From assembly GCF_058153355.1 (NCBI RefSeq), contig NZ_CM177019.1: a DNA stretch of 64,000 nucleotides. The stretch is one strand, 5' to 3'. Position numbers and translations under genes: made by a program. Shown here one piece after another: positions 43,581 to 45,148 of the stretch; positions within the stretch are counted from its first letter, which is position 1, and each line of letters starts with the position of its first letter. A model generated the notes under the pieces. It saw only the letters and a list, made by a program, of their open reading frames with translations. It did not search any database and was not told the origin of the DNA.

Positions 43581-43816
43581 ACGTGATTGCCTGATGCGAC
43601 GCATGCGCGTCCTGTCATGCCTCCGGGCATTGCGCATATCGCATCTGGCGATTTCCGTCGCTTACCCTAAATCCGCCATCAACACCTTTGATTTGATGTA
43701 GGTCGGATAAGGCGTTCACGCCGCATCCGACGATGAGCGTCAATACCTGATGCGATGCTAGCGTGTTTATCATGCCTCCAGGCATTGCGCATGTCGCATC
43801 TGGCGATTTCCACCAC
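43581..43816. repeat. REP/BIME-like palindromic units plus an imperfect ~105-bp direct repeat that copies the 3' end of argA
   Basis: GCCTGATGCGACGC…GCATCCGAC motifs; segment 43590-43700 is ~90% identical to 43745-43850 (the latter overlaps the argA stop region). Confidence 0.7.
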
Positions 43817-45148
43817 TTACCCCAAATCCGCCATCAACACTTTGGATTTACGCTGGTAGTTGTACAACTGCTTTTTGCTCTCGGGCAGTAAATCAATATC
43901 CACCGGGGTAAATCCACGTTCCTGGAACCAGTGAATACTGCGCGTGGTCAGTACAAACAATTTGCTTAATCCGCTTTGCTTCGCCTGAGCGGCAATGCGC
44001 TCCAGCAAAACCTCGCCCCTTGATGAGCTGCGGTAATCCGGGTGAACGGCCACACAGGCCATTTCCCCAATCTTCTCTTCCGGGAACGGATAGAGTGCTG
44101 CGCAGGCAATAGTCGTGTTATCGCGCTGAATAATAGTGAATTTGTCGATTTCCATCTCCAGTTGCTCGCGAGAACGGCGTACCAGAATACCTTGCTGCTC
44201 CAGTGGGCGAATCAACTCCAGAATGCCGCCAATATCGTTGATGGTTGCGCGACGAATTTGCTCGGCGCTTTCCATCACAATCTGCGTACCGATACCGTCA
44301 CGTGAGAACAACTCTTGCAACAGCGCGCCATCTTCCTGGTAACTAATTAAATGACAGCGACGTACGCCGCTGCGGCAGGCTTTCACCGCACCACGCAAAA
44401 AGCGCACCGTACCGGAGTTGTAATCGCCTTTCTCTTCCTGAGCTTCTACCCGTGCTTGTGCTTCGTTAGGGAAAAGCTCGGAGACAATATCGCCGTCGTC
44501 ATTAGTGACGCCCTGTGAAGAGCAAAAACCAATCATCTTTTCAGCTTTCAGTTTGATGGCCAGTTGAGTGGCGATCTCTTCCGAGGTCAGATTAAAGCTC
44601 TCGCCAGTGACTGAAACCGCGACCGGCCCCAGCAGCACTATCGCACCGCTGTCCAGTTGACGATGAATCGCATCTTCGTCAATCCGCCGGATACGCCCGC
44701 TATGGCAGTAATCCACACCGTCATCCACGCCCAGCGGCTGGGCAATAATAAAATTGCCACTGACGACGTTGATATGCGCGCCCTGCAGCGGCGTGTTATT
44801 GAGACTCATCGACAGGCGAGCAGTAATATCCAGTTGCAATGTTCCCGCAGCCTGCTTCACCAGTTCTAGTGTTTTGGCGTCGGTCACGCGTATATTTTTG
44901 TGATATAGCGGTTCGTGGTGATGCGCTGCCAGATTCGCATCGATCTGCGGGCGCGCTCCATAGACCACGACCAGACGGATGCCGAGGCTGTGCAGCAACC
45001 CGATATCATTAACGATACTGGAGAAATTCTCATGCTCAATGGCTTCACCGCCGAGCATGATGACAAACGTTTTTCCCCGGTGGGTATTGATATAAGGAAC
45101 CGAATGGCGGAATCCCTCGACCAACTCGGTTTTACGTTCCTTCACCAC
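43817..45148 (-). CDS. argA: N-acetylglutamate synthase (GTG start assumed)
   Basis: ORF 43817..45220; body matches ArgA (…[35 protein letters not shown]…); 443-aa product if started at the Val codon. Confidence 0.9.

Follow-up and report, generated by a model that had tools for sequence, protein, structure and literature searches.

Repetitive extragenic palindromic (REP) elements are imperfect palindromes of 30-40 nt with a conserved GTAG tetranucleotide 5' of the foot, and this tag, together with a two-base mismatch in the stem (AA/GC; B268GC, AA to GC), is needed for binding by TnpA_REP (Ton-Hoang et al. 2012, PMC3333891). In bacterial interspersed mosaic elements of the BIME-2 type, copy number differs between strains, and the tandem copies at typical loci are well conserved (PMC3333891). 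The same paper cites the codA-cynR interval of Escherichia coli K-12 as a case of gene-fragment capture by BIMEs. Here, a related arrangement is described in the spacer between the convergent genes recD (+ strand) and argA (- strand) of NCBI RefSeq assembly GCF_058153355.1, contig NZ_CM177019.1; "the window" is the whole stretch of 64,000 nt that was analyzed, and all positions are counted from its first letter. This spacer is very likely an atypical BIME-2-type REP array whose approximately 155-bp unit has sequestered the 3' end of argA, with two units in the window. The argA fragment proximal to recD is a dead relic, while the distal fragment is the working end of argA.

At codA-cynR, K-12 contains a direct repeat of 200 bp in two copies that are 97% identical (3477-3675 vs 3677-3875 of the K-12 stretch compared). 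Each unit combines a Y/Z REP pair with the 3'-terminal 84 nt of cynR, and the second copy passes without a break into the real gene. The recD-argA locus resembles it in several respects: the genes are a convergent pair, the direct repeat joins REP sequences to the 3' end of the adjacent gene, the first copy is a relic, and the second, distal copy runs on into the working gene. Where codA-cynR has a 200-bp unit with 97% identity and an intact REP pair, the recD-argA unit measures 155 bp, and identity between its copies is approximately 81% overall and 89-90% within the locus-specific part. The unit includes only 33 nt of the gene, each REP pair has one member cut to a 13-nt remnant, and both Z2 REPs are without GTAG. 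Unlike codA-cynR, recD-argA is also polymorphic, the two-unit allele being carried by 2.4% of E. coli genomes, and E. albertii shares the arrangement.

A second class of related events is larger in scale. Shyamala, Schneider and Ames reportedly described, in 1990, REP-mediated tandem duplications of the chromosome in which the join point lies inside a hybrid REP and the duplicated segment covers the kilobases between two pre-existing flanking REPs. The recD-argA locus has in common with these a REP at the join of two direct copies, but its unit is only 155 bp long and there is no REP outside the copies, the flanks being recD and argA coding sequence.

The direct repeat and its anatomy

A repeat search of the window finds a direct repeat of 80 nt at 90% identity (43615-43694 vs 43770-43849), which extends leftward for a further 34 nt at 74%, with a start-to-start spacing of 155-156 bp. 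A preliminary description of this DNA had argued for a direct repeat at this place, duplicating the argA 3' end plus downstream sequence, and the duplicate is genuine. The 42 REP-free nucleotides (a 9-nt spacer and the argA fragment) agree with the second copy at 36/42 positions, the next best site on either strand of the window reaching 23-24/42. In the window, a 24-nt argA motif has exactly two occurrences, where 100 shuffles lead one to expect none. Between the relic and the real argA end there are three differences, all of them synonymous and in third codon positions (TCA/TCC, AAG/AAA, TTA/TTG). The features of the locus are listed below.

41754..43580, + strand: recD coding sequence, an open reading frame (ORF) of 608 residues, named recD in the annotation of homologous records; stop codon TAA at 43578-43580
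43581..43587, + strand: S-like linker of unit 1 (ACGTGAT), directly 3' of the recD stop, weakly similar to the S linker of unit 2
43588..43624, + strand: Z2-type REP of unit 1, head TGCCTGATGCG, compared with E. whittamii Z2 REPs and with the definition in PMC3333891
43625-43639, + strand: tail-side linker of unit 1, 15 nt
43640-43652, + strand: remnant of a Y REP head in unit 1, 13 nt (CGCATCTGGCGAT)
43653-43661, + strand: spacer of unit 1, 9 nt
43662..43694, - strand: relic argA 3' end (stop and last 10 codons), non-coding, 30/33 identical to 43817-43849
43695..43697, strand not assigned: junction filler, 3 nt, GAT here and TTC in E. albertii
43698..43731, + strand: canonical Y-type REP with GTAG tag, 13-bp stem and AA/GC internal mismatch, without counterpart in the other unit
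43732..43743, + strand: S linker (GATGAGCGTCAA) between the Y and Z2 heads; the same motif (gatgagtgccaa) is found in the E. whittamii BIME-2 array
43744..43779, + strand: Z2-type REP of unit 2 with degenerate tail CCTCC; the Y-S-Z2 module matches BIMEs elsewhere at 82-89%
43780..43816, + strand: linker, Y-head remnant (43795-43807) and 9-nt spacer of unit 2, built as in unit 1
43817..45148, - strand: argA coding sequence, 443 codons or 1332 nt as annotated in homologous records; a longer ORF with a TTG start is also listed
43513..43701, + strand: program-listed ORF of 62 residues, spurious

Unit 1 occupies 43581-43694 and unit 2 43732-43849, and the 37 bp between them consist of the 3-nt filler and the 34-nt Y REP. 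The right end of unit 2 is formed by the argA stop (43817-43819) and the last 10 codons of the gene (43817-43849). Read as a repeating series, the unit therefore contains a Z2 REP, a linker, the remnant of a Y head, the 9-nt spacer, the last 33 nt of argA, the 3-nt filler, a full Y REP and the S linker, so that REP palindromes are interleaved with the copies, in agreement with the preliminary description. In E. whittamii and in an Escherichia genome labeled 'SCPM', a full Y REP ending CGCATCCGGCGAT occupies the position of the Y remnant, just before the argA stop.

Identity between the units is unevenly distributed: 69% in the S linker and Z2 REP, 88.6% from the linker to the argA fragment, and 30/33 in the argA fragment itself. 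The figure of about 90% proposed earlier applies to the right 70-83 nt or so (89-90%), and not to the wider ranges first given for the copies (43590-43700 vs 43745-43850), where a global alignment yields 82%. It is only this right part, including the argA stop and the last 10 codons, that is a locus-specific duplicate. Matches of 82-89% to the Y-S-Z2 module (43695-43785), covering 80% or more of it, lie at unrelated loci, such as one next to mutT, in 4616 genomes. Since unrelated BIMEs match at this level while the two local copies of S and Z2 are only 69% identical, the left 45 nt or so of the repeat (S linker and Z2 REP, about a third of its length) are at the level of generic BIME similarity.

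The REP at 43698-43731 is of the Y type. It reads GTAG GTCGGATAAGGCG TTCA CGCCGCATCCGAC, an inverted repeat search gives 86% complementarity between its arms (43702-43715 / 43718-43731), and pairing of the arms by hand leaves AA opposite GC unpaired within the stem. It is also repeated and extragenic: queries containing this REP match a median of 8-9 places per genome, and stretches of 33-37 nt are matched at 97-100% at unrelated loci and on plasmids. The two Z2-type REPs, with heads TGCCTGATGCG at 43588 and 43744, do not have CTAC/GTAG at the foot. Both end in CCTCC in place of CCTAC, and the GTAG tag of the opposite strand is thereby lost. Both are degenerate and, judged by the published requirements (PMC3333891), should not bind TnpA_REP.

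As in BIME-2, Y and Z2 stand head to head and in opposite orientation across an S linker (43698-43779), this module is 82-89% identical to other BIME-2 loci, and the number of units varies between strains. The tail-to-tail side departs from the BIME-2 pattern. In place of an s, l or r linker it contains the 15-nt linker, the degenerate 13-nt Y remnant, the 9-nt spacer, 33 nt of argA and the 3-nt filler, and its units resemble one another much less than do the well-conserved tandem copies of typical BIME-2 loci. The recD-argA array is best filed as an atypical BIME, one whose unit bears a gene fragment and is variable in copy number. A permissive E-value scan against Rfam gave, for the REP-derived nucleoid-associated RNA naRNA4 (RF02564), a best match of 54.6 bits at 43701-43776 (+), below the gathering threshold of 59.5 bits, and further sub-threshold matches of 35.7 and 31.2 bits, the remainder being noise. 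These matches reflect common REP/BIME sequence, not membership of the family.

The recD-proximal copy was previously described as non-coding and as the source of a spurious 62-residue ORF, and both statements hold. Homologous relics in E. albertii have a 7-nt deletion that destroys the reading frame. The ORF is absent from the annotation by the Prokaryotic Genome Annotation Pipeline (PGAP) in 6/6 two-unit genomes for which annotation was fetched, and an extra G at 43640 shifts its frame in 5/5 other two-unit genomes aligned there. The window itself is without this G, reading CATATCGCATC where five other two-unit genomes have CATATGCGCATC, which is either a deletion of 1 nt specific to the lineage or a sequencing error.

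Alleles and flanking haplotypes

The comparison across E. coli suggested in the preliminary description gives one or two units, depending on the strain. With a junction-specific query against 5426 complete E. coli genomes, the two-unit junction is found in 130 (2.4%), and the 60 matches listed are all 100% identical over 121 nt. A count of 1397 genomes, obtained at a coverage of at least 80%, was rejected as a measure of two-unit frequency, as the 81-bp single-unit allele aligns to both copies in the query. Other E. coli have a single unit of like build, with a spacer of 61 bp (K-12 included) or 81 bp. A systematic sample of the match ranking suggests that roughly 80% of genomes have the 61-bp and roughly 15% the 81-bp spacer, and the only length classes among sampled E. 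coli are 61, 81 and 237 bp. A search of E. coli with a synthetic hybrid middle unit as query found no three-unit allele.

In two E. coli 61-bp alleles that were examined, the approximately 20 nt up to and including the argA stop read CGTCGCTTACCCT, the state of the window relic, followed by CACTTTGGA of the real type. Such alleles could be two-unit alleles that collapsed by crossover in the shared 17-nt AAATCCGCCATCAACAC, or could equally represent ordinary polymorphism.

Across Escherichia, the recD-argA site is a REP hotspot. E. albertii has one, two or three units; its type strain and Escherichia sp. MOD1-EC7003 each have one unit in a spacer of about 80 bp, and another Escherichia genome, with a comparable BIME-2 array, has a Z2 REP, a linker and a full Y REP at this site. 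A second argA-end motif is present in none of the species-representative genomes scanned. A metagenome scan with a relic-specific 22-mer recovered two contigs, with flanks 98-99% identical to the E. albertii type strain and about 89.5% identical to the window. In one contig the composite unit is present twice in tandem, and in the other three times; its parts are, in order, a Z2 REP, a linker, a Y remnant, a spacer, a relic argA end, 3 nt of filler, a Y REP and S. Both CACCTTTGA and CCGTCGC are common to the E. coli and E. albertii relics, while all real Escherichia argA ends examined have CACTTTGGA. Over its right part, unit 1 of the window shares 86-91% identity with the E. albertii relic units and 90% with unit 2 of the window. 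Because E. albertii carries the composite unit with shared diagnostic bases and a broken frame, the relic is non-coding and its capture is old or has crossed between species, rather than being a recent local event. Real argA in Salmonella and Citrobacter koseri likewise has TCA AAG, the codons of the relic, which occur in no real Escherichia argA examined; this is suggestive, at most, of the relic preserving an older state of argA.

The E. whittamii recD-argA interval, comprising the approximately 290 nt upstream of the argA stop on the reverse strand, contains a BIME-2 array of three regular units (Z2-l-Y-S), none with an argA fragment. This array is a different expansion at the same site.

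The window flanks belong to a rare haplotype. The recD 3' part and argA-amiC (about 42650-46455) differ by 4-5% from almost all other E. coli: the 3' 600 nt of argA are matched at 99% or more in only 18 genomes and the 3' 600 nt of recD in only 5, all other genomes in the sampled rankings reaching at most 96.8% for argA and 96.0% for recD. The spacer itself is different. Over 43489-43885 there is no substitution relative to four other two-unit genomes, only the 1-nt indel at 43640, while recD (42650-43488) and argA-amiC (43886-46455) show about one single-nucleotide polymorphism per 22 bp relative to other two-unit genomes, with near-identity again beyond 46455. Judged by the first substitutions (43488, 43886), the diverged tracts stop short of the REP spacer by about 90 bp on the recD side and 35 bp on the argA side. 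The other two-unit genomes have common flanks, their argA haplotype being present at 99% or more in 3222 genomes. One spacer allele is thus found on at least two flanking haplotypes approximately 4% apart, which implies its transfer by homologous recombination. A sharply foreign tract relative to K-12 was also considered and rejected, given that the whole window is about 3% diverged and the locus only moderately more so.

The preliminary description spoke of a REP-mediated local duplication. The duplication stands, and REP mediation is plausible but unproven, while a recent local event in this genome is contradicted: the copies differ by about 10%, E. albertii has the composite unit in two to three copies, and a single spacer allele occupies flanks approximately 4% apart.

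These flanks also raise the possibility, which we regard as doubtful, that the two-unit allele is a recent introgression into E. coli from a diverged Escherichia, with the two copies derived from different parental alleles and joined by homology-facilitated illegitimate recombination. A rare allele, on flanks 4-5% from essentially all other E. coli and with a spacer free of substitutions relative to two-unit genomes with ordinary flanks, would be expected of such an import, and the purely synonymous differences in the argA fragment look as if both copies had once been in working genes. No closer donor was found among the Escherichia references, however: for argA, the window has 95.7% identity with K-12, 94.6% with Escherichia sp. 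MOD1-EC7003, 91.9% with E. whittamii and 89% with E. albertii. The E. albertii relic has the same diagnostic bases on flanks typical of its species, which makes the composite unit older than any recent event in E. coli. Introgression concerns the spread of the unit, not its formation, and is largely compatible with a captured argA end in a BIME array.

Origin of the composite unit

We infer that the unit goes back to a single ancient capture, in which a breakpoint of BIME amplification or recombination would have fallen inside argA instead of in the linker. A candidate step is that TnpA_REP, a REP-associated transposase (RAYT), cleaved at a C|T site some distance away and strand transfer ensued; illegitimate recombination would be an alternative. 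TnpA_REP has been reported to cut single strands at C|T dinucleotides lying over 400 nt away from a BIME (Ton-Hoang et al., PMC3333891). On the argA-sense strand, AAC|TAC lies 6 nt upstream of the homology boundary in real argA (stretch CAACTACCAGCGTAAATCC), and in the relic the Y REP tail GACC|TAC, a cleavage site of the iREP type, lies 3 nt upstream of that boundary. The positions of C|TAC are compatible with an origin by strand transfer. Later gain, loss and spread of units would have taken place via ordinary homologous recombination.

Several observations weigh against this account of a captured argA end, or limit it. At the junction by the Y REP there are 3 nt (E. coli GAT, E. albertii TTC), as against 6 nt (ACGCTG) in real argA, so that a clean transfer from C|TAC to C|TAC gives what is observed only if a 3-nt deletion and substitutions came later. 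By the criteria of PMC3333891, the absence of GTAG from both Z2 REPs leaves the Y REP as the sole REP competent for TnpA_REP today. Simple rolling amplification from a unit terminated by Y predicts a Y REP on the recD side, and there is none. Tandem Repeats Finder reports nothing at the locus, even at a minimum score of 30, as expected for fewer than two full units of uneven identity. The case for a single ancient origin draws on a few shared sites and two metagenome contigs, and transfer between species is an alternative to vertical persistence. The mechanism of origin is proposed here from the sequences.

A live rival dispenses with the transposase altogether. A plain tandem duplication of about 120 bp, from the recD stop to argA codon -10, could have arisen by slippage or by illegitimate unequal crossing-over, with later gene conversion from another genomic BIME-2 placing the Y REP and the canonical S-Z2 at the junction. 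The S linker and Z2 REP of unit 2 are indeed closer to generic BIME-2 sequence (82-89%) than to those of unit 1 (69%), as for a conversion tract, and the unit 2 Z2 has only four mismatches to an E. whittamii Z2. Both genes remain intact, and the change in copy number in E. albertii needs homologous recombination alone. We nevertheless consider it unlikely, in that it calls for two events where one suffices, and a duplicated allele without the Y REP was seen neither among the sampled E. coli alleles nor in the species representatives or the E. albertii contigs. At K-12 codA-cynR there is also a BIME at the junction, suggesting that REPs are part of the process and not later arrivals.

The icd/e14 pattern, in which the 3' end of a gene is duplicated with synonymous-only differences, suggests a further alternative: the repeats would be att scars of an integrative element, since lost, that used the argA 3' end as its target and brought in a substitute for it. 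Here too a relic 3' end with synonymous differences adjoins a working gene. This origin is highly improbable. The locus has no element, integrase or core att site, and the 37 bp between the copies are accounted for by the filler and a standard Y REP. The repeat spans the whole intergenic REP structure instead of a short core, no allele bearing an insert occurs among the sampled genomes, and three tandem units, as in E. albertii, do not fit an attL/attR pair.

That the similarity is nothing but REP consensus, named in the preliminary description as what would overturn it, or else an assembly artefact, has in its favor that the first third of the repeat, on the left, does not rise above REP background and that Tandem Repeats Finder is silent, but it is refuted for the locus-specific right part by the agreement of the REP-free nucleotides and the twofold occurrence of the argA motif, and by a junction present in 130 independent complete genomes.

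Transcript ends, significance and neighboring regions

No intrinsic terminator (a GC-rich stem-loop followed by a T run) was found on either strand of 43300-44100, and a consensus scan detected no promoter at the locus. Both strands are predicted to give strongly structured RNA (z-scores -2.8 and -4.4), and minimum free energy and centroid folds alike keep the Y REP hairpin. The hairpins of the array would form the structured 3' ends of both convergent transcripts. REPs and BIME-2 have been described as binding sites of DNA polymerase I and gyrase that also assist Rho-dependent termination (PMC2817692), and the array may itself be a gyrase site of the BIME-2 kind. Having one more unit is probably close to neutral.

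The two-unit recD-argA allele is real but ordinary strain-to-strain variation, with a precedent already published for K-12 codA-cynR, and as one more polymorphic BIME locus it matters little alone. It does provide a well-delimited natural example for the proposed model of capture and amplification by TnpA_REP, with one to three units in two species, a single intact Y REP and a pair of dead Z2 REPs, and it is a case of an intergenic REP allele that has passed from one E. coli background to another without its flanking genes. For annotators it is a warning, as relic gene ends in REP arrays create spurious ORFs and can mislead allele calls based on alignment. One may speculate further, at long odds, that the unit is the in vivo footprint of a REP-associated transposase, a single ancient capture that persists as a copy-number polymorphism in at least two Escherichia species, possibly via tuning of argA/recD 3'-end processing or expression by the number of hairpins, and that the relic is perhaps a fossil predating the Escherichia crown group.

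Beyond the locus, divergence in the window has further peaks. It reaches 11% relative to K-12 around 36.5-37 kb (36500-37000), and within recB, 39455-39655 has 18 mismatches per 200 nt relative to other two-unit genomes. These peaks indicate additional recombination mosaicism in the ptrA-recB region. On the other side of argA, approximately 5.5 kb between amiC and the initiator tRNA-Met genes (46633-52196) have no counterpart in K-12. Related genomes are annotated here with a PRD-domain protein, an EIIC transporter subunit of the phosphotransferase system (PTS) and a MalY/PatB-family protein, and the region looks like an accessory sugar-utilization cluster situated by tRNA genes.

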